64,000 nucleotides of DNA from Cladosporium halotolerans. Its lineage: Eukaryota. This document shows positions 33,133 through 60,715 of this stretch, piece by piece. The position numbers and the translations under genes were made by a program. The stretch spans positions 248,001-312,000 of the forward strand of contig NW_027191472.1 in NCBI RefSeq assembly GCF_011745625.1. The letters are read 5' to 3'. The notes beneath the pieces were generated by a model. It was not told the origin of the DNA. It did no database searches and saw only the letters and a program-made list of their open reading frames with translations. Positions within the stretch are counted from its first letter, which is position 1, and each line of letters starts with the position of its first letter.

Positions 33133-34049
33133 GCGTCTAGGAGGAGTGATGGTACATAGCCAGGGGGAGCCTAGATACGATCCAGCGCTGTGATTCATTA
33201 CTTATTGCTGCTTGTATGGGCTTATGTTTCCTGCCTCTTTACCGCCTTCTGAACTTGATTCCAATGAAAAGTCAACATCTACATGTTTCATGACAATACC
33301 GTCACGTCCTGCACCCTACTCTACTGAACCAGTGGGAAGACCAACATCCACATACTCAACCTTGCACATCCCATCCATCAGAACGCTGCAACCCGCTGCA
33401 ACCGTAGTCTACGCCGAGGTTACAAGATTGAATTCAGCCGGGGCGGGCGTACAGGCGCAAGGAGCCGCAGCTAAAGAGGCCAGAATGCGTCTCACGTGCA
33501 GAGCCGCCCCGCGTTTCGGTAGGGCAAAGCGACGGCTCACGTGGGCCGGCAAGGTGGGGTTCTGCTGTGACGCGGGCGGAGATCAGACAGCGACGCTCCA
33601 TGCCACTTGCCCTCCACATCCCGCGGCGTTGCACCGCCCATCCACCCTCTCTGCACCAATGCAGTCCGCACATGCGCCTGGCCCGCCCACATGAGCCCGA
33701 TGCCAGCCTCGACTTGACGCTGGCCCAGCGCCCAAAACCGCCTCAGCCTTTTCCACCACCACCTTTCCGCCGCTACGCCTGTTCCCCGCCGCCCCAACCC
33801 ACCCGTTCGCTGGTATATGAGCGCGACTCCCGCCGGCCCCTCCTGCTGCTCCTCCTCTTCGACTCGCCATACGTTTGTCAGTCCCGCAGACCCTACGTGA
33901 ACCGCTCCCCACGCGTCTGCCCTACCCGTTGTTTCTTCAGTATGCACATCCTCCACCCCTCCTCACCAGATCTCCCCGGCTCATTTGTCTCCTCCAAGCA
34001 GGCCCGAGCCCGAGAAGAGACCACGAACTCCGCCGAGAACCAGGTCGAG

Positions 34050-35384
<1,335 letters not shown>

Positions 35385-36343
35385 AAGAGACGAAGCACGA
35401 GAAGGACTTTTCACGGAAAATTAGTTTCCGGGGCTCCTGTTTTCTTTACACTCAAGCATTGGGCCCGGCGTTTACGACAGATGCTTGATGCTTTTTGACT
35501 CGAGACCTTGGAGGGTTTCATGCGCGCAGGCGGGGCTGGCGTGCGGTCGGTCGGTTGGTCGGTTCCTCCTCCAATGAGAGGGGCAATGGGATGAAGAAAG
35601 CCCGCTGCCGAAGTCGAGTGATCGACGCCTGCGCTGTTACGCTTTGCTGCTACCCTTACTGTTACACGACTAGATCACGGGGGAGTCTGAGAAATACCAA
35701 TACCACCTGCTACTTTGAGACCCTGCCCTTGATGACACGGAAGTCTGTGTGCCTGAGGCTGGCGGAGGAGCTGCGGTTCGGCGGCTGCCTGGCTCGCTTG
35801 CGTGTGGCTGTGTCTCCATGCTATACGATGGTCTGTGTTGGCTACTCCGCCTTGTTTGGGCGTGGCTATGCCTATAGGATTACTGATGATCCCGGTCGGT
35901 TGGTCTCGCTTACGGTTTCGGACTAGTCTGAGATGATTGGTATGTAGCAACGCGCGCTCTCTTGAGCCTACAATATAACATTAAGCAGAGATTGTACCAC
36001 CTACTGCATTTTCTCATCGGTCTCCAATGCGAGTGCTTTGCGTGCTGACTGCTGTAGAGGCTTTTGGCTGAGGAAGCGTGGTTCCACAGTTAACGTCGGC
36101 TGAATCTGAGGATGTTCTGGTTCCAACGAAGTGTATGGCAGGATGGAAGTGAAAGTAGTCCATAATCATTTCTCTGTCGTTTCTAGGCCCTGAATAGCCT
36201 CCAGTTGCCACTGCCATGTACCATAACTCCCCGAGGACCTTGTCCCGCCGCTATCGACCGTTCATGTTAAGAAAACAAGGGAACTAGCAAATCCAAGGCT
36301 GTCAGACGAAATTCCTCCATCCAGAATCTGTCGCCAACCGTCA

Positions 36344-38254
36344 TCACAGACGCGTATTATGGTTAGTACGGGCTCTCGGGCGAACGGCGCATCGGTAGGG
36401 ACACCTGTTGCTACGCTGAAGCCATGGCGAGATGCACTCGCTGCAGAAAGTGTGCGAGCAGGGCAATGTCTCCGTAGTGCCGCTCGCGCCGAGGGTCTCG
36501 AGGCAGATGCCACAGTCTGCTCGCTCACTGGTGCCTGGTGGACTTTGCGTGGCTACTGAACCACTAGGAGCAGGACTCGCTGGCTCACTACTGCTTGATG
36601 GGCCTGGTGCGGCGGCTTGTGCACTGGAAGCAGGAGTTGGTGACTCACCGGCAGTTGGCGGCACGGCCGTTGGGGTATCAGAAGCAGGAGTTGCTGGCTG
36701 CTCTGGTGCAGCCGTGTCGTGATCGTGCTGGTGCTCGGCTGGAGAATGCTGGGGAGCGATATTTGGTTCTCCGGCTACTGCACCGAGTCGCTGTGCTGGG
36801 GGAGGTTGCTGCTCGTTGACACTAAGTGCTTCAATGGCCGCCTCGAGTGTCTCGATAGGAGGCCGCTGTTGTTCGACGCTAGGCTCTGCAGCTGCTTCTG
36901 CAGGCGCCGCGACTGGCGGACTACTAGAAGGTCCAGAGGTCGCAGAGGTCGCAGTGGGTTGCTCAAATTCTTGTGAGGGCCTAGCATCTCCATGGCGCTC
37001 GAAGTCTTGTGCAAGAGCCGGTACCGGATCGGCTACTCTTTCGAGAGTTGCCACTGACGGCTCGACTACACTATCATTGCTAGCCTGTAGCGCTTCTTGA
37101 ACTTCTCTCAGCGCTCCCATGAGCTGACGAGCCTGAAACGGACCTGGGATGAATCTCAGTCCGTTATCTCGGCAGAGAGGACAGCTAGGTGACTCGGTCA
37201 ACCAGCGCTGAATACATCCTGCGCAGAAGCTGTGGTCGCATCTCAAAGTTTCACGGTCGCCGTTGCTTCCGACGTCATCCAAACAGATGGTGCAGCGCTC
37301 TGGTGCGGAAACAGTGCGCTGGCGATCAGGTTCGGGCGCGTGGTGTGGCTGGTTGGTCTGGTGATTGGCTTCTGGCGTAGAAGCATTCTGTTCACGGACA
37401 GGAGTGACAACGCGTTGTGGCTGGGCTGCATGGCTTTGCTGTTCGCGATGAAGAGAAGGAGAATTTGTTGTCCGTATACGTGAGGTTGAGTTTTGATTCT
37501 GAGCGGCGTGAACGACCTGTTGAGTAGCAGCGACAGGCTCGCGAACAGGCTCCATGACAGGCCGGGACTGGGTATACCGTACGCGTTGATCGATCTGACG
37601 GTCGACCGGAATCAGTGGTCGTGTGACTGAATGTTGCGGATAGTAAGTAGCTTCTAGCGCGTGAGCAAAGAGCTGGCGAATTGGCTGCTGGATACGGTGT
37701 GGCTGAACGGTGTGCCGGTGTTGCTCGAACTGAAGGTCAGGCTGATACACTGTTTGTGGTAAAGCGAGCGAAGCTGCATTCTCGACGAAGTAGTTGAGTT
37801 GTGGTACAGACGCAGTAGGCTGGCGAGCAGGGTCGACGATACGGCGTGGGCGGCCTGCTTGCTCACGCTGTCCGATTTGATGGATGTGCTGATGACGCTG
37901 TTGAGCAAGGGCAATTGATTCCAAGCCCTGGGTACATCGAATGGATGCGATCCAATCATGGATCACCTGGATGTACTGGTCGGAGTCTTTGACGTGCCAT
38001 CGTTTGCAAAGAGTAAGGGAAGCAAGCCTGGCTAGTTCCCGCTCAAGCACACGAGTGTCATTTGCGATGCTCGGAAGCACCGTCAACAGCCGTTTTGCTT
38101 GTACGACATCGGCTCTTGCTATTCTGTTCCGACATCTTCGGCCTTGTGAATGTGCATGCCCTACACAGCTCCAGTCGTTGGTATCTGGGTTGACCAGTTC
38201 GAGGAGATTCGCGGTAATCCACGGCTGACTTTGATTAGACCACAAGAAAGACAT
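36344..38254 (-). CDS. Putative E3 ubiquitin ligase: N-terminal Cys/His module plus two C3HC4 RING fingers
   Basis: Intronless 636-aa ORF. RING1 is CTICLDD..LRCDHSFCAGCIQRWL..SCPLCR and RING2 is CGICLET..LPCSHTFCSECISPWL..RCPYRC. The N-terminus is CVGHAHSQGRRCRNRI..LCKRWH..W. Confidence 0.85.
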   Translation of the reverse strand: MSFLWSNQSQPWITANLLELVNPDTNDWSCVGHAHSQGRRCRNRIARADVVQAKRLLTVLPSIANDTRVLERELARLASLTLCKRWHVKDSDQYIQVIHDWIASIRCTQGLESIALAQQRHQHIHQIGQREQAGRPRRIVDPARQPTASVPQLNYFVENAASLALPQTVYQPDLQFEQHRHTVQPHRIQQPIRQLFAHALEATYYPQHSVTRPLIPVDRQIDQRVRYTQSRPVMEPVREPVAATQQVVHAAQNQNSTSRIRTTNSPSLHREQQSHAAQPQRVVTPVREQNASTPEANHQTNQPHHAPEPDRQRTVSAPERCTICLDDVGSNGDRETLRCDHSFCAGCIQRWLTESPSCPLCRDNGLRFIPGPFQARQLMGALREVQEALQASNDSVVEPSVATLERVADPVPALAQDFERHGDARPSQEFEQPTATSATSGPSSSPPVAAPAEAAAEPSVEQQRPPIETLEAAIEALSVNEQQPPPAQRLGAVAGEPNIAPQHSPAEHQHDHDTAAPEQPATPASDTPTAVPPTAGESPTPASSAQAAAPGPSSSSEPASPAPSGSVATQSPPGTSERADCGICLETLGASGTTETLPCSHTFCSECISPWLQRSNRCPYRCAVRPRARTNHNTRL

Positions 38255-39716
38255 CTCGTGAGACGCTGAGGGGGTGCCTCAAAGCTTGTTTGATGAGATT
38301 GATAGAGAGAATAAGTGCCATCTGGCCAGCTCATCTTGAGTATAAGTACCTAGATAGGATTGTGGGGGTTTGAACAGCCGTCAAGGCTGTGCAGCGCCCG
38401 TTCGACGTGCGGCGCGTCGCTTGGTTCACTTCGCCCACTTCACTGCAGCTTCTCGAAGTGGCAGTGAAACCGCATCTATTTCCGCAGCTGGGCAGTCACA
38501 TGGGAGGAGGGCTATTCTTCACTTAGCTCGTGGTCTGTAACACTGCTGGGCAGTGAAGCGATGACGGATGGCGGCTGGCGCCCTGCAAATACGGATAATC
38601 AACGCAGTACACGAGGGTTAAATTTACTTTCAGCAGGTGGATGGAGGCCAAAAGACGTAGCTCGCTCGTGATGTCCACTCTCCCATTGCGTCACCTCGGG
38701 AACTCCATGGTGACAGCCTGTTGGTGGCGCTCGTTCCCTTGCCGCTTGAGTCATGAAGCAGCCGGCGACAAGCGATGAAGAGCTGAAGACTCGTTCAATG
38801 CATCGACGGGCATGGCCAACATCGATTCGCTCGGTAATCCTGAGGTGCAACCAAGTATGGGCGGCAATGCGCCTTGTCCTCGCCCTGCTGAGCCAGTGCC
38901 TGCATATTCCCGAACGGACTACGTTTCATTGTCGAAAGCTCGACAAAGACTGATTGGTGGCTTCAATCCGTCATGAAAACGATGAGAATGAAACTCGCTG
39001 CGATAACGTGCTTGTGAGGTGTTCTGACTCGGGCCAGCTGACGATGAGGGAAAGATGCCGTGGCTGAGCGAGCTCGGGCGCGCTTCCGGCCTCAGACAGA
39101 CGCCGAACGACGCCGCACGCCTGCAGGCGCGCCGGTCGACACGCTCCCAAGCCTCCAACATTAGTTCATCCTGGTCACACTTGAGGTGATGATATTTCTG
39201 GTCACATCTGCCCGATTTTAGGCAGCTTACACACGCCTCGGACTCCATGGCGGACATCGGCTCGATTTAGGCGCGAGCCAAAAACTTTTTCTTCCGACAG
39301 CTCTCCAAGTCCACTCTCTATCCACAAACAAACCTACGCGTTCGCCTCTAGACAACGCTACATGCCATTTCCGCTTCACTCAGCAGCATTGAAACAGCTG
39401 AGCACCTTTGGCCTGTCTAAGCCGCAGTGGACTGGCTTCGCTTAAGCCTCCGCCTACTCGCAAAGCCTCGCAGCAATCTATGTGAGTCCCTTTCTAATCA
39501 TCTTCTTCAGCTCGGTTATGAAGCCAAGGGCTTGCTACGCATTGCCCCCTAGAGATTGGAGTGCCGCACATATGGCACACGGTGCCAGAAAATGCGTCTC
39601 TCCCCAGATCTCAGCATTTCTTTACAATCGAACGGCAATCCATCTAGTCCCAACTGCTTGTGGAGTTAGTTTGCCATCTCGCGATATCCACATCCCGCCT
39701 CCCACTCTTGCTCAGC

Positions 39717-41662
39717 ATGTCCACAATGCTCGCGTTATCCTTCGACGAGTTACAAACTGAAGTCCAACAACGGGGGACCTTTGGTCAACACCAGTGCATC
39801 TGGAAAACAGACAACGACCGCTGTGATTCTGTGCTGGATGACGAAAACTCTCTGGCTACAGTTCGGAGCATTCTAACGATTTCCCGGTCGGAACTTGGTA
39901 TTGAACAGATTCAGCATGCAGGTCACCTCTCGCTTTGCCCCGACCATGGCGACGTGATATGCATTGAAGATGTGTTCACTTCTCGATGGATTTTCGGGCC
40001 GGACTCGGATCTCGGTCCGTCTCATCTACAAGCGCCCATCCAGCGTGGTGCCAGCGGTACTGATTGCTTAAATCCACCAGCAGATCCACCGACGAGAGCC
40101 CCACGGTCACTATCATCTGAACAGAATACTCCCCTAAGGCCCGGGAGTTCAAGCGACAACATCGTCGCGGATCGAACGGATTCACTTTCGCTTGGCCTGA
40201 CACCTCCATCTCAGCGAACGGGTCAGCGCAGCCTAGGCCTGCAAGCACACCCTCGCCCGATGCCCGTCGACCGGGGGCAACCCCTTTTCAGCAATCAGCG
40301 GCGCCCAGCAATACGAGCACTGGGCATTCGCCTTCCCCACTTGCATTATCTTCCAGTCGAAACTCTGTATCGAGATATCGTTACCCACTCTTCTCTACAC
40401 TCCAAGCAGATTTCCAGAATCAAGACATCAAAGAATACCAGTGCATAGCCAGGAGAACCAGTGGACGCTGTAAGGGCACGATCAATGACGACAATGTTTT
40501 ATCTCAGGTCCGAACCATCATGGAACAAGCTAGAAGTACTCTCTCGCTGGACGATGTTCGCAAAGTCAACCAGTCACTGGTGTGCAACAAATGGGATCAA
40601 TACGAGAAGCAGCGAATGGACATCGAAGCGACATGGAAAGGCGAGTTTCCAGACTTTCCCGACGACTTCGGAAGTCCAACTTCACCCGAAAATACCCCTT
40701 CTAAAAAGAAGTCAGACCCCCAGGTGCCAGAAGTCAGCGATCGCCAGCGCGCACGAAACTCCCGGCAGCGAACAAACACTGGCACAGGCGACAATGCGTG
40801 CTCCGGTCGCAGTGATATCCATCGACTGGCAGTCTTTGCGTCAGAATTCTCAAGCACAGGACCTCAGGGCGATGATACTCCATCACTGAATAATGCGGAA
40901 GAATCAGAGATTTTGGAAGGGTCAAACCAGCCTTCTCAGAAAAACCGCTTTCTTGAGGCAAAATGCTCGGCTTGGGCGCCACACAAGGTCAGATCAGAAG
41001 TGTCCCGACTGTTCAATAAGCCCTTACCGACACCGAAGGTCGTGGGTGTATTGTACCTGTTCAAGGCGATGCACTCCAACCATGTCAAGATTGGATACAC
41101 GCTGGGGAATTGGGAAGAAAGAAAGGCGGGGATCCAAAAGAGCTCTGGTATAGCGCTCAGTGATGAGTATCCGATAGAGGACATACCTTACGCTGTGTTG
41201 CTACGCCTGGAGGCGGTGGTTCACACTTACCTCGCGCACTTCCGACGTGATGTTCCAGTCAAGATACGGACTCGAGCTCAGCATGAGTGGTTTGAGATTG
41301 ACTTCCAGATCGCAAAAAGGACTGCTCACTTCTGGCTGGATAAGATAAGAAAAAGTGGAAGAGTCCCTGCCGGGAACGGCGAGGTTTCAGATTATGACAT
41401 GAATGAGGCGAATTGGCCGGCGATTCACCGCGATCATGACAGACGGTTTGCGGCGTGGGAGACTGTTATCGAGAAGTCGCCAGAGTCTAACACGAATACA
41501 ATGCATGAGATCTGGTGGCGAAAGATTGGTAGGGTGTGGTTGGAAGGGTGTGTTGCCATCTGTTTTGCAGCTGCCGCACAACACCGCTACGGAATGGTAC
41601 CTTCGGCCATCTTGGCAGTCTTGTGGACCATCTTCGCACACTCAATCCTGTTGAGCTCCTAA
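39717..41662 (+). CDS. T5orf172/MUG113-like (GIY-YIG superfamily) nuclease-domain protein with two N-terminal Cys-module repeats and a C-terminal hydrophobic anchor; frame change near 40.0-40.2 kb (intron or frameshift)
   Basis: The frame from ATG 39717 holds repeat 1. A second frame, open from 40121 to 41662, holds a S/P linker, repeat 2 and GVLYLFK..HVKIGYT..R..RLEAVVH..HEWFEID..W (T5orf172 signature), and ends in TM-like segments. Confidence 0.7.
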
Positions 41663-56126: not shown

Positions 56127-58093
56127 CTCTCCCTCTTCTTCTTCTTTCCCTCCTTTTGTCTCCAATAGAGCGAAGAGGTCGACCGCGAGGTTCCCTCGCA
56201 ATCACGCGGTCTTTTTTATCTCTATCTTTCTTTCTTGATTCACGATGACGTTTCTCAACTGACTTTGACTTTGACATTTAGCGCCGCTGCATTGGGTCGG
56301 GCTTTTTCTTGCTTTTCCTTCCTTCCTTTTTTTTTCTTTTTTCCGCCGCTTGTGGGAGGGAAGGACGGGTGGGTGGATGGAGGGTTGGAGAGAAGATGGA
56401 AGAAACAAGGGACGGGATAAAAAGTCGTTGCTGGGTTTTTGTTTTTGTCTTTGATTGGTTTTGGTTTGGATGGGGTGGTGGGCACGGTTGAGCCGCGGTG
56501 CATTTTTTGGGGATTGGGGAGGGTTGAAGGGTTGGATTTTTGTAATCCTTTTGGCGGGGTGGCTTTTATTGTTGTGCAGTGCACATGAGAGGGAGGAAGG
56601 GTGAGAAGGGTGAGGTGATGGTGAGGGGATGTGAGGGGGTGTGGAGGTATTCATAGGCAAAGGCTAAGGCAATGAATGAATGGTGCGGTTTCACTTCATC
56701 CCTTCTCCGGGCTTGTAGGTCTCTTTGTCGTTTGTGAGTCCTGGACAGGCTTGGGGCCCGGTACGGCTCTGAGACGTCGCTACGGGCATGAAGATATCAC
56801 TTGGAGGAACTCTACGGATTCTCGAACAGCCTTTCCCGATGAAACTGGGTCTCCTTCTCCGTATTCGGGTAACGAACCCGAACACATCACTCGAAGACCC
56901 TGAGCATCAGGCTGAAACCGCAGCGATCTCCTTCAGCCGATTCTACGAATTCGTCGTGGACCGTCCGCATGTTCTCTTCCGTCGTAACCAAGATCAATCC
57001 TAGGAAGCAATCGCAGGAGCTTTCTTGCAAGAAGAGAGCTTCCTAGACTCTTCCACCGCGAATACGGAAGTCATTTGCCGTGCTGGATTGTCGGATTACT
57101 CCGCCATATGAGAGGGTGGCACGGTAGGCGCTTGGAACTCCGATGACTATTTTCCTGGGAGGTGCAGTGGCAGGCGGCGATTACGGACGTGGACCCCCCA
57201 CGGATGCCTTCCCCTCCACCATGCCCGCCACAAGAAGTTAGATGGACCAGCAACATTGCTTGAGCTACACCACTCCTCCTACACGTCACGCACCACAGGC
57301 CAACCTCCTTCACGATGGCTCGATTCTCCGAAGACCAGCGCCGCCGGTCAGCGCTCTCCGCATCGCCGTAGACTGGCATCCTCTGAATCTGCACCCTCGT
57401 TTTGGCGCCCGTTTTCTTCTGTGCGGGTGTGGGTGCGGAGTGTGGGCGTTAAGAGGGGATTTGCTGCTTGTTCAGAGTATTGGCGGGTTAGATGCGTTAG
57501 CTTTGAGCTTCGAGACAAGGAACATGGTTACTCTCGTTCATTTATTGGAGGTATGGTGTCTCGTGATGCCGACACAGAGGATGCTTGGGCTAATACGGAG
57601 CTGCATTACAAGAAAATCTCGATCGGATATAGTTGAGATCATCGCTGACTTTATCATCTCGTCGGCCAGGATATCTGGTTGACTGGTTCAAGACAATATT
57701 ACGACGGGCGCAGAGGCTGCACATGCAGACCGCGGCGTCGCAGGATGTCTGCCTTGCCACTTGATGACCAGACTTCAGATGTTGTGTCACCGTAAGATAC
57801 GGGGTCACCATAAGCTGTAGGCTGCCAGCACGGAGGCGTGGCTTAGGTCCAAGCCTCTTACTCAACCTGAGTACTCAAGGCCCATGCAAGACTTGATCAT
57901 AACCAAGACAGTTTCATTGGCTGTGGCGCTCGCATGCAGCAAAAGGCAAGGCTGAGCCGCTTACAAGGCGGCTGCGCCTGGACACCTGCGCCTTGACACT
58001 GCCCCAGCGACCTTATCCTCACTGTCAAGCAATCGCAGTCGTTCAAAATTCAAGACACCCGACCGCTCTACCGAGTCCGTTAGCCACCTTATC

Positions 58094-60715
58094 ATGGACT
58101 CCTCATTGCTGCCGAACGGCCTTGATACGGCCTCAGAAGACGCTGGAGGATCGCTTGCGGCCACCGACCCTATCACTTGGATCGAGACGGAATCCGGTCT
58201 GCTATCACCTGAACCACGCCCACATCCCGCGTACAGACCTCTCGCCGACGACGGCATCCGCTTGCTGAAGATTCTGCCGGGAGACGAAGGCAGCAAGGTC
58301 TGCTGCTACATCGAAGAGTTTGCAATCCCTACGGCGCCGCAATACACTGCACTATCGTACACATGGGGCTCGCCGTACGGTGTCCACGAGATCCTCATCA
58401 ATGGATCCTCTTCTCGGGTTCCGAAAAATTTATGGCGGTTCCTGCACCAGGCTAGAAGCTTGGTTGGTGACTTGTCTGGTTGGTTTTGGATAGACGTGCT
58501 GTCGATCAATCAGTGCGATGTCTCGGAGCGTGGTCACCAGGTCAAACTGCTATCAAGCACCTTCGCCAGGGCTGGCCGGGTGCTTGTATGGCTTGGTCCG
58601 GCATATCAAAGCAGCGATGTGGCGATGGTAGCTCTGGCCAAGCTTGACGAAAACGGCCAGAAGGGAGAATGTCACGCGAAACTATGGCGAGGTAATGTTG
58701 GGCATGCTATGCTCGGATTTTGTTCGCGTCCCTACTGGAGACGGCTCTGGGTTTTTCAAGAGTTGCGGCTTGCCCGTGAGGTTCGACTCATGTGCGGAGA
58801 GAGGACGGTTGAATGGCACCAGATTAGTGCCGTGATGGATTCCGCTGATTCTGGGCCCAAACGACTTCGGCATGTTGATACCGTCGAGGTCGCATTGAGG
58901 AGCCCAGCCATCAGGATGATCAGGCTGAAACTTCAGTCTGTCGACACGACTCTATGGAGCCTTGTCAGGCTAACAAGCCACCTACGTTGCCTTGATGTGC
59001 GGGACAAAGTGTACGCGCTTCTTGGTGTGGCTACAGGTGGATGCCGTGGCATCGAGCCCGATTACAGCCTACCGTTTCCCACACTGATGAACCAGCTTTT
59101 GCGCGAGATCTTCAGACTGTCGCCACCATCAACACTCGAAGAGGCAGCCCAACGGTCTGAGGAGGTCGAAGATGCAATGAACGTTCGACGTGGTACTATC
59201 TTCACCTTGCAAGATCAACGCGGGGCCCACCCACCGCCCTGCGAAACGGACATGCGTGTTTGTAGGCTCGGCCCTCAAGTCATGAGCGTCAGTCTCTGGT
59301 GGACCGAATTCTACGGACATGGATCCGTGCAAAAGCTACTCTTGGATTCATGGCAAGCTGAATACTTCGCAATTGACAAGAGTTTCCATGGCCCTCTTGT
59401 GGACCACACAAATACTTCAATTGCAAGGAAGCTTTTTCACTCCTGTATGGTCCGACGAAACATGGAGGCTCCGGCTGCCTTTAACGAGTTGACAACATCA
59501 GAAGGTCGTTGTAATTATGCCATGACCATGAACGCTTCTCGAGACTTCTTGGCGCCACGGCCACCGGATGTGCCATCGATCAAATGGCTTGAAGGTTTGG
59601 GCACAAGGTCCCGTTGTCATCCTCGTAATAGAGGCTCAATGATTCTAGTCTTGTTCTCAGCGGGGGGATACCTCGCGTGTCGGGAGAACCCGCTGCTGAT
59701 GCTAATGTTTCAGAACGCGGTTGAGCTCGATGATTTGAATTTGTTGCAGGAGCTATTCAAAATCCAGGATCTCCCCGATCTGAACGGAACGATTGCCAAC
59801 TCTAGCCTTTATCCCAAGAGTGCTGATTGTTGGCGCGATATGTCAACTTCTGCATATTCGAGTCGTGCGAAATATTATAATGTGCTGCAACCCGCGCATG
59901 ACGTGCCCCTACTTTGTTATGCTGCAAGCAGAGGAGCAACAGATTGTGTCAGGGCACTTACCAAGCTTGACCATTGCGACATTAACATCACTGACGCACT
60001 GGGAAGGACACCGATCATGCATGCTGCTTACGCCGGATATCGGGACTGCGTAGAGCTGCTCCTGGGCTCAGGCCGCTGCGACATCAACGCCTGCAGCCAA
60101 GACGGTTGGACACCATTGATGTATGCTGCAGACTGTACGAGGGAGGATGTCTTGACTCCTTTTAATAACACCGGCAATTGCGACGTCAACAGGCTGGATC
60201 TGCATCATCGCACACCGATATTGAAGCTCGTCTATCATGGTAGAGACTTCGCGGTGCAAAGGTTCCTTCGATTCGATGGATGCGATGTGAATCTTCCAGA
60301 CGAGCAAGGTTGGCTTCCGTTGACGTTGGCAGTGCATTCAGCGGCGGTAGTGGAGCCTCGCAATGCCGGATCAATGTCACGCTTCACTTATGCCAGTATT
60401 GTGAGATCGCTACTTCGTTCTCCGTCCTGCAACGTCAACGCTCGGGGAAGACTGGGGATGTCCGCTCTACATTTCGCTGTTGCTGGGCGCTCGATTGACC
60501 TTGTCAAGTGCTTGCTCGAAAGACCGGAGTGTGATGTTGGTTTAAGGTCTGACGATGGCGAAACTGCTCTCAGCATTGCTACCAGAGACACAAGAACGGA
60601 CATTGTTCACCTGTTGACAACGGCGAGATCTGACATTCTACAGAAGTCTAGAAGACGACGAGCGAAGAAGAGCAGGAACAAAAGGGCGAGGCGTGCAAAA
60701 CTCAAGAAACGATGA
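58094..60715 (+). CDS. HET-domain (HET-6-like heterokaryon incompatibility domain) protein with C-terminal ankyrin repeats
   Basis: YRPL..IRLLKILPG..YTALSYTWG..NLWRFL..WFWIDVLSINQCD..ERGHQV..VLVWLG..RPYWRRLWVFQEL..C.DVRDKVYALLG, then about 6 ankyrin repeats (GRTPIMHAA, GWTPLMYAA, GWLPLTLAV, GMSALHFAV, GETALSIA). Confidence 0.92.
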   Translation: MDSSLLPNGLDTASEDAGGSLAATDPITWIETESGLLSPEPRPHPAYRPLADDGIRLLKILPGDEGSKVCCYIEEFAIPTAPQYTALSYTWGSPYGVHEILINGSSSRVPKNLWRFLHQARSLVGDLSGWFWIDVLSINQCDVSERGHQVKLLSSTFARAGRVLVWLGPAYQSSDVAMVALAKLDENGQKGECHAKLWRGNVGHAMLGFCSRPYWRRLWVFQELRLAREVRLMCGERTVEWHQISAVMDSADSGPKRLRHVDTVEVALRSPAIRMIRLKLQSVDTTLWSLVRLTSHLRCLDVRDKVYALLGVATGGCRGIEPDYSLPFPTLMNQLLREIFRLSPPSTLEEAAQRSEEVEDAMNVRRGTIFTLQDQRGAHPPPCETDMRVCRLGPQVMSVSLWWTEFYGHGSVQKLLLDSWQAEYFAIDKSFHGPLVDHTNTSIARKLFHSCMVRRNMEAPAAFNELTTSEGRCNYAMTMNASRDFLAPRPPDVPSIKWLEGLGTRSRCHPRNRGSMILVLFSAGGYLACRENPLLMLMFQNAVELDDLNLLQELFKIQDLPDLNGTIANSSLYPKSADCWRDMSTSAYSSRAKYYNVLQPAHDVPLLCYAASRGATDCVRALTKLDHCDINITDALGRTPIMHAAYAGYRDCVELLLGSGRCDINACSQDGWTPLMYAADCTREDVLTPFNNTGNCDVNRLDLHHRTPILKLVYHGRDFAVQRFLRFDGCDVNLPDEQGWLPLTLAVHSAAVVEPRNAGSMSRFTYASIVRSLLRSPSCNVNARGRLGMSALHFAVAGRSIDLVKCLLERPECDVGLRSDDGETALSIATRDTRTDIVHLLTTARSDILQKSRRRRAKKSRNKRARRAKLKKR

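Follow-up and report, generated by a model that had tools for sequence, protein, structure and literature searches.

A divergent fungal gene pair encoding a putative double-RING ubiquitin ligase and a GIY-YIG-type nuclease-like protein with a shared N-terminal domain

The stretch of fungal DNA analysed here (64,000 nucleotides of Cladosporium halotolerans, contig NW_027191472.1, positions 248,001 to 312,000, forward strand; hereafter the window) carries two genes that stand head to head: on the minus strand a gene whose product has two C3HC4 RING fingers and is a putative E3 ubiquitin ligase, and on the plus strand a gene for a T5orf172/MUG113 protein of the GIY-YIG type with putative nuclease activity. 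Our comparisons indicate that the two products share a remotely homologous N-terminal domain, here called RING-N in the ligase and modules 1 and 2 in the nuclease, and that the two genes are held together in a group of Dothideomycete fungi, while in this genome the pair is probably degenerate, because a frame break interrupts the nuclease gene. A preliminary description of the locus had given the gene coordinates, the domain calls, a spacer of ~1.46 kb and a membrane-tethered nuclease; open reading frames (ORFs) and Pfam bear out the first three, and a Kyte-Doolittle plot shows a hydrophobic C-terminal tail. It had also placed the start of the nuclease gene at 39717; from there the gene is not one open frame, the reading passing from frame 3, used to about 40217, to frame 2 from about 40238. 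An in-frame intron, the frame break itself, five stop codons in a relative and the intactness of both RING partners lie beyond that description. The features of the locus, in window coordinates, are as follows.

36344..38254, minus strand: putative double-RING E3 ligase gene, a single ORF of 636 amino acids (aa)
37916..38200, minus strand: RING-N domain, aa 19-113, to which its profile aligns at 104 bits
37169..37297, minus strand: RING finger 1, C3HC4, aa 320-362 (Pfam zf-RING_2)
36398..36514, minus strand: RING finger 2, C3HC4, aa 581-619 (Pfam zf-C3HC4_2 / zf-RING_UBOX)
38255..39716, no strand: divergent spacer, 1462 bp between the two start codons
39717..40014, plus strand: exon 1 of the T5orf172 gene, an ORF in frame 3 that holds module 1 (about 39774-39989; profile 111.5 bits)
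40015..40083, plus strand: in-frame GT..AG intron, from joints in contigs of run X3 (depth 4.7 and 17.3)
40218..40237, plus strand: frame break, frame 3 to frame 2, in the disordered linker between the modules (tblastn with 640-aa orthologs)
40418..40681, plus strand: module 2 in frame 2, aa 100-187 of the ORF 40121-41662 (nuclease-module profile 124.9 bits)
41045..41335, plus strand: T5orf172/MUG113 domain (GIY-YIG clan), aa 309-405 (Pfam)
41591..41662, plus strand: C-terminal hydrophobic tail and stop codon (Kyte-Doolittle)

The assignment of the minus-strand gene as a putative E3 ligase is based on its fingers. Read from the translation, both contain the complete eight-ligand C3HC4 pattern (CTICL..C.H..C..C..C..C at aa 320-362 and CGICL..C.H..C..C..C...C at aa 580-620), and Pfam places zf-RING_2 on two stretches of the ORF at E 1.2e-23, with PF13639 scoring 83.5 bits and PF00097 58.6 bits against gathering scores of 27.3 and 21. 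Long low-complexity linkers rich in Gln, Pro and Ser separate the fingers. The second linker contains three imperfect 36-nt direct repeats, 54-60 nt apart (36550-36699), that code for a Pro/Ala/Ser-rich low-complexity stretch. Orthologs of 637 aa in a sister lineage are 92.5-92.8% identical to this protein.

In the nuclease-like protein PF10544 (T5orf172) scores 31.2 bits over a cut-off of 20 and PF13455 (MUG113) 24.2 bits over a cut-off of 22.3, and PF10544 is carried by all 13 of 13 homologs. Across these homologs Y312, Y326, R334 and E389 are invariant, and they may correspond to the catalytic Tyr, Tyr, Arg and Glu of GIY-YIG nucleases such as I-TevI and UvrC; nor do W473, L498 and W502 vary within the family. 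The 19-residue Kyte-Doolittle mean reaches 1.6-1.96 at aa 491-495, and the tail is a possible tail anchor. Organisms in which the gene has named relatives are Cladosporium sp. NU13 and Baudoinia panamericana.

Contigs of run X3, which has the same organism code and study as the probable source run X1, were treated as RNA-like, as they carry GT..AG joints, cover both genes and leave the middle of the spacer bare; on these grounds both genes are transcribed. Over the ligase gene the contigs run without joints (36300-37836 and 38183-38413), the spacer is uncovered from 38472 to 39014, and cover resumes at 39184. The intron of the nuclease gene has alternative acceptors, being either 66 nt long and ending at 40080 or 69 nt long and ending at 40083. 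In metatranscriptome run X20 contigs fall on the RING gene only, and the bare nuclease gene in that run is uninformative. Within the spacer a single block (38375-38448), lying about 120-190 nt 5' of the RING start codon, where the X3 contig over the start of the RING gene has its 5' end, is conserved with the metagenomic loci L002 to L005 described below (by blastn, 42 nt at 86% identity to L002-L004 and 78 nt at 76% identity to L005), whereas the remainder is not alignable with them.

The pattern C-x8/10-(R)C ... LC ... W is present at the N-terminus of the RING protein and in both nuclease modules. The preliminary description had read it as a Cys/His/Trp pattern; it recurs in all three places, with the exception that the His following the third Cys of RING-N is not conserved in module 2. 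That modules 1 and 2 are related is clear from BLASTP (E 2e-9, with 29% identity over 66 residues). A RING-N profile built from 154 instances detects module 2 at 18.1 bits (E 1.6e-4), ranking it second among about 1,000 window ORFs with the next unrelated ORF at E 0.35, and scores 8.7-18.1 bits in 13 of 15 nuclease sequences, where reversed and shuffled decoys reach at most 6.3. In the reverse direction the nuclease-module profile reaches at least 8 bits in 60 of 149 RING-N proteins as compared to two reversed decoys. When the two profiles are aligned with hhalign they match over 69 columns (E 1.1e-4, probability 56%) with three Cys and the Trp in register. Based on these comparisons we conclude that the shared module is a real, remotely homologous domain of both proteins, and that the N-terminal half of the nuclease carries two diverged copies of the RING-N domain.

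AlphaFold2 predictions are in line with this. The RING-N model (88 sequences; predicted local distance difference test, pLDDT, 90.8; predicted template modelling score, pTM, 0.81) runs from a short helix through a hairpin region that bears C30 and C41 to three helices with C83/H87 and W101, and the module 2 model (16 sequences, pLDDT 80.1) has the same order of elements: helix, Cys hairpin, three helices. The comparison of predicted structures proposed in the preliminary description shows a common order of elements. Residues ~456-526 of 8ts6_A fit the three-helix part of both models (Z 5.4 and 4.4), a shared placement that is a weak hint. With Foldseek the RING-N model matched no solved structure at E<=0.001; the best VIA-align Z values, 5.7 for RING-N and 4.4 for module 2, concern the helical part only and fall below the level that would exceed a common helical arrangement, which is no proof of a new fold. 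In the ESM Atlas both fall in the same two unnamed Ascomycota clusters at 0.76-0.83, a value below 0.9 and a lead only.

RING-N appears to be widespread. A phmmer search with aa 1-117 of the RING protein against 1.84 billion representative proteins (clusters at 50% identity) matched 272 clusters at E<=1e-3 and 37 at E<=1e-10, and of the 149 matches listed 140 have the domain beginning inside their first 30 residues. The Pfam scan took in 126 of these, leaving out the last 23: RING-type domains lie downstream in 56, 69 have no family and one has a weak low-complexity match. RING-N itself belongs to no Pfam family, even at E<=10. Its conserved positions are C30, C41, C83, H87 and W101 together with a GRRCRN motif, and, judged solely from the conserved Cys3-His pattern, it is probably zinc-binding. 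As modelled, RING-N is predicted to be a helical domain of ~95 residues that defines a large, unannotated Ascomycete family. The domain is duplicated in tandem in five of the 149 listed matches (P0022, P0025, P0035, P0043 and P0145), an arrangement that mirrors the two modules of the nuclease and makes duplication of the domain recurrent. Of two word-indexed protein searches, one returned only the ortholog P0001 and the other 15 proteins, five with RING Pfam domains and none with T5orf172. The bacterial repeat protein P0158 among the phmmer matches was discarded as a false positive, a repeat artefact. The only sequence matches to solved structures, the designed Kelch-repeat (SAKe) proteins 7q58_A, 7on8_A and 8pjs_A, were discarded too, no stretch passing by itself. 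The N-terminal 'L..iNP....W' stretch of RING-N gives spurious Kelch-like repeat matches.

That orthologs of the two genes would be repeatedly adjacent, as the preliminary description had suggested, is what emerged when metagenome contigs were searched with the nuclease family. The search gave six loci, L001 to L006, of which L002, L003 and L004 are near-identical and represent one lineage, and L005 has a nuclease gene 92% identical in DNA to that of L003; L001 has no upstream sequence. All four of L002-L005 have, upstream of the nuclease gene, an oppositely oriented gene that combines RING-N with two RING fingers (ORFs of 381-385 aa) and sits ~1.3 kb away from the start of the nuclease. Compared with the window their nucleases are 43-44% and their RING N-domains 47% identical, and among window ORFs of at least 80 aa only these two genes match the four loci, apart from a 32% match between HET-domain paralogs. 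The flanking genes differ: the window has a galactose-1-phosphate uridylyltransferase (GalT) gene, L003 a GH3 glycosidase gene, and L005 genes for an MFS transporter and a HET-domain protein. As the nucleases are only ~44% identical and all flanks have changed, the pair has been kept as a unit, and it appears to form a conserved two-gene module with tight head-to-head linkage in a group of Dothideomycete fungi. In a quick tree the paired RING proteins fall in one clade of 9 out of 157 domain rows (Shimodaira-Hasegawa-like approximate likelihood ratio test, SH-aLRT, 94). In the sister lineage the RING and intact nuclease clusters share their longest contigs (366,639 and 29,260 nt), while a 6,678-nt contig is given both for P0199, a RING protein of the same subfamily, and for P0007, a nuclease of the Cladosporium type; this is suggestive, but only the lengths coincide. 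In this lineage the nuclease is 71-86% identical to that of the window.

The nuclease gene of the present genome is broken. Frame 3, opened by the ATG at 39717, ends at 40448 and frame 2 is open from 40121 to 41662; intact 640-aa orthologs align with frame 3 up to 40217 (tblastn of P0002 aligned 39726-40217) and with frame 2 from 40238, a net change of -1, and the sister lineage has an uninterrupted nuclease ORF of this length. As a contig of X4, an independent metagenome, spans 40164-40404 with 0 gaps and 0 differences from the window, the break belongs to the DNA itself and did not arise in assembly. We considered an intron that would join the two frames and rejected it, having found no convincing donor among the enumerated GT..AG introns; moreover, the X3 contigs are colinear through 40083-40636 without a joint, and therefore no intron repairs the frame. 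Between 40121 and 40480 neither an X XXY YYZ heptamer nor a Ty1-like site was found. X3 lacks one C of the CCC run at 40263 (ccc to cc, depth 34.6) and is elsewhere identical, whereas run X1 and the independent metagenome keep all three. This deletion was rejected as a repair, since it leads from frame 3 into the third frame and a stop at 40473 and does not restore the gene; the difference could be one between strains, transcript heterogeneity or a contig error.

A second nuclease copy, at L005 (L005:10001-12088), has five in-frame stops, four of them at CAG or TGG codons of L003, and the adjacent RING gene is intact. Changes of C>T plus G>A outnumber the reverse by 85 to 51 in the nuclease gene and by 23 to 19 in the RING gene, a moderate excess confined to the nuclease gene and a possible mild signal of repeat-induced point mutation, which would imply a past duplication. 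Taken together, the nuclease gene has been disabled at least twice independently, with the ligase persisting.

Around the pair, a search for direct or inverted repeats and for mobile-element marks in the flanks found none. The GalT gene (33432-35384, plus strand) is tail to tail with the RING gene and occupies several frames, presumably split by introns; it is not kept beside the pair at the other loci. An ORF of 919 aa with a HET domain and ankyrin repeats lies 16 kb downstream of the pair (57956-60712, plus strand), and a HET gene lies ~1.8 kb downstream of the nuclease gene in L005 (13833-14963) and in L001 (2674-3804). HET genes are common in such fungi, and therefore their proximity may mean nothing.

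None of the known systems with which we compared the pair matches its architecture. Slx1, a structure-specific endonuclease that acts with its partner Slx4, joins a GIY-YIG/URI nuclease to a C-terminal RING-type finger, and its RING part takes part in regulating the nuclease. Slx1 resembles the pair in uniting a GIY-YIG-superfamily nuclease and a RING-type zinc finger in one functional unit. It differs in being a single polypeptide of the URI type, whereas here there are two genes on opposite strands, a T5orf172/MUG113 type of domain and a ligase with two RINGs, and Slx1 is not known to carry the shared N-terminal domain that links the present pair. With generic fungal E3 ligases of the RING-H2/C3HC4 kind the minus-strand product has in common RINGs above the Pfam thresholds and long low-complexity Q/P/S-rich linkers; unlike these, it begins with a domain that has no Pfam family or solved-structure match. 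The nearest named relatives of the nuclease are the MUG113/YFS1 proteins, S. pombe Mug113 and S. cerevisiae Yfs1 (YPL034W), which are fungal and belong to the same Pfam families. Their function is given as unknown, and the text covered describes no RING partner (PMC12719033). YFS1 also has a split reading frame, which is read by a programmed +1 frameshift at CUU-AGG-C within the first 20 codons and is Saccharomycetales-specific (PMC12719033). The break described here is instead a -1 change in a mid-protein linker without a recoding signal, and as the YFS1 site lies elsewhere in the gene and is confined to Saccharomycetales, we regard the likeness as a coincidence and not as a precedent. The HET-S/NWD2 pairs, the classic fungal example, are likewise adjacent genes with a homologous segment, which is taken to signal direct interaction (PMC3321046). 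In those pairs a NOD-like receptor (NLR) and a pore-forming protein have a short amyloid-forming motif in common, whereas here the segment is a Cys-containing domain of ~90 residues, predicted to be helical, in a putative E3 ligase and a nuclease-like protein. Pfam found no NACHT or NB-ARC domain in either gene. A literature search of titles and abstracts, with full texts and subscription journals outside it, returned no description of the pair or of the domain.

Based on our data we propose, with a probability of roughly 45%, that the ligase and the nuclease are functionally linked, sharing a domain for targeting or association as well as a divergent promoter region. The two genes would be divergently transcribed from a shared spacer of ~1.3-1.5 kb and would stay together as their neighbours change. 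The shared domain may bring both proteins to the same partner. This could be each other, by homotypic contact, or some ligand that both bind, for example a feature of nucleic acid or chromatin, and the ligase would then control the nuclease, or the substrate of the nuclease, by ubiquitination. The physical contact, the ubiquitination, the nuclease activity and the membrane anchoring that this proposal draws on are putative.

Several observations weigh against the proposal. The T5orf172 match is modest (31 bits), the coding sequence of the gene is not intact in this genome, and its copy in L005 is broken by stops; as the nuclease is broken in both places, the ligase that persists without it may have a function of its own. 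Adjacency was seen directly in three lineages only, all of one fungal group, and the contig of L006 (nuclease 35% identical), which is short, shows no RING-N gene in the 1.9 kb upstream. Most members of the large RING-N family have no known nuclease partner (T5orf172 occurs in 0 of the 126 scanned RING-N proteins), and one small subfamily alone is known as paired. The sequence likeness is remote as well: pairwise BLASTP of the RING N-terminus with module 2 is not significant (E 0.23), and the RING ORF gets no more than 4.3 bits (E 1.9) from a narrow profile built on 17 nuclease modules. Profile searches speak for homology in the case of module 2, with decoys lower, and fail for module 1 alone, which the RING-N profile leaves undetected at 2.8 bits.

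The main rival holds that the pairing is historical: an old local duplication or domain transfer would have supplied the nuclease gene with copies of the N-terminal domain next door, and the head-to-head order would last only because divergent pairs with an interleaved promoter are not easily separated, the two proteins being independent. We consider this somewhat unlikely, though clearly the strongest of the alternatives. It would sit well with a large RING-N family that is mostly unpaired as far as is visible, with recurrent tandem duplication of the domain (five of 149 listed members), with a ligase that stays intact where the nuclease decays, and with a faster-evolving nuclease (71-86% identity between sister lineages, as compared to 92.5-92.8% for the ligase). 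It accounts less readily for both genes being transcribed and for modules that are deeply diverged and yet belong to a pair still together at ~44% nuclease identity with every flank different. It is very improbable that the likeness between the RING N-terminus and the nuclease modules is itself convergent or due to chance, a matter of Cys spacing on helical segments and not of common descent. The insignificant BLASTP and narrow-profile values, the 56% probability given by hhalign and the fact that neither model is anchored by a solved fold would be expected of it, but the reciprocal profile scores far exceed those of decoys, 69-80 columns align with all conserved Cys and Trp in register, and both models have the same order of secondary-structure elements.

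It is also conceivable, if distinctly unlikely, that the pair is, as the preliminary description had it, a conflict system of the toxin/antidote, allorecognition or defence type, in which a membrane-tethered nuclease effector is restrained by its cognate E3 through the shared domain and ubiquitination. The tight linkage of a unit whose flanks change, the faster evolution of the nuclease and its hydrophobic tail, the HET-domain genes near the pair in L005 and L001 and at 57956-60712 here, and two independent nuclease losses with the ligase retained (the frame break here and the five stops in L005) are all consistent with such a system; nuclease loss is, however, equally expected of any dispensable gene, such fungi have HET genes in great number, the flanks showed neither repeats nor mobile-element marks, and the idea draws no support from toxicity, rescue, strain polymorphism or drive. 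The boldest form of this idea, a fungal conflict or surveillance module of a new kind, seems to us a long shot: a tail-anchored GIY-YIG nuclease would be gated by a dedicated double-RING E3 via the paralogous N-terminal domain and ubiquitination, nuclease loss would represent a toxin lost before its antidote, and RING-N would represent a new fold for homotypic recognition that Ascomycete E3s employ widely. Least credible of all is that the frame break is bypassed by recoding and a full-length nuclease is made. A yeast relative in the same protein family needs a programmed +1 frameshift (PMC12719033), two independent DNA data sets contain the break in a gene that is still transcribed, and downstream of the break the frame matches intact orthologs at 86% identity. 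Nevertheless, the shift needed here is -1 (or +2) and not +1, the 40121-40448 overlap of the two frames has no X XXY YYZ heptamer or Ty1-like site, the sister lineage has one uninterrupted ORF of 640 aa, the 1-nt deletion of X3 at 40263 does not restore the frame, and the yeast site lies in the first 20 codons and is Saccharomycetales-specific (PMC12719033).

Should they be confirmed, three findings would be new. RING-N would be a widespread Ascomycete domain without a Pfam family or a clear solved relative, one with which many RING ligases begin and which probably determines their recognition targets. The independent inactivation of the nuclease in two lineages, with the ligase intact, would make the pair a candidate conflict-type system, and the pair, kept head to head and with that domain in common, would give experiments a concrete way into what the uncharacterised fungal MUG113/T5orf172 proteins do.

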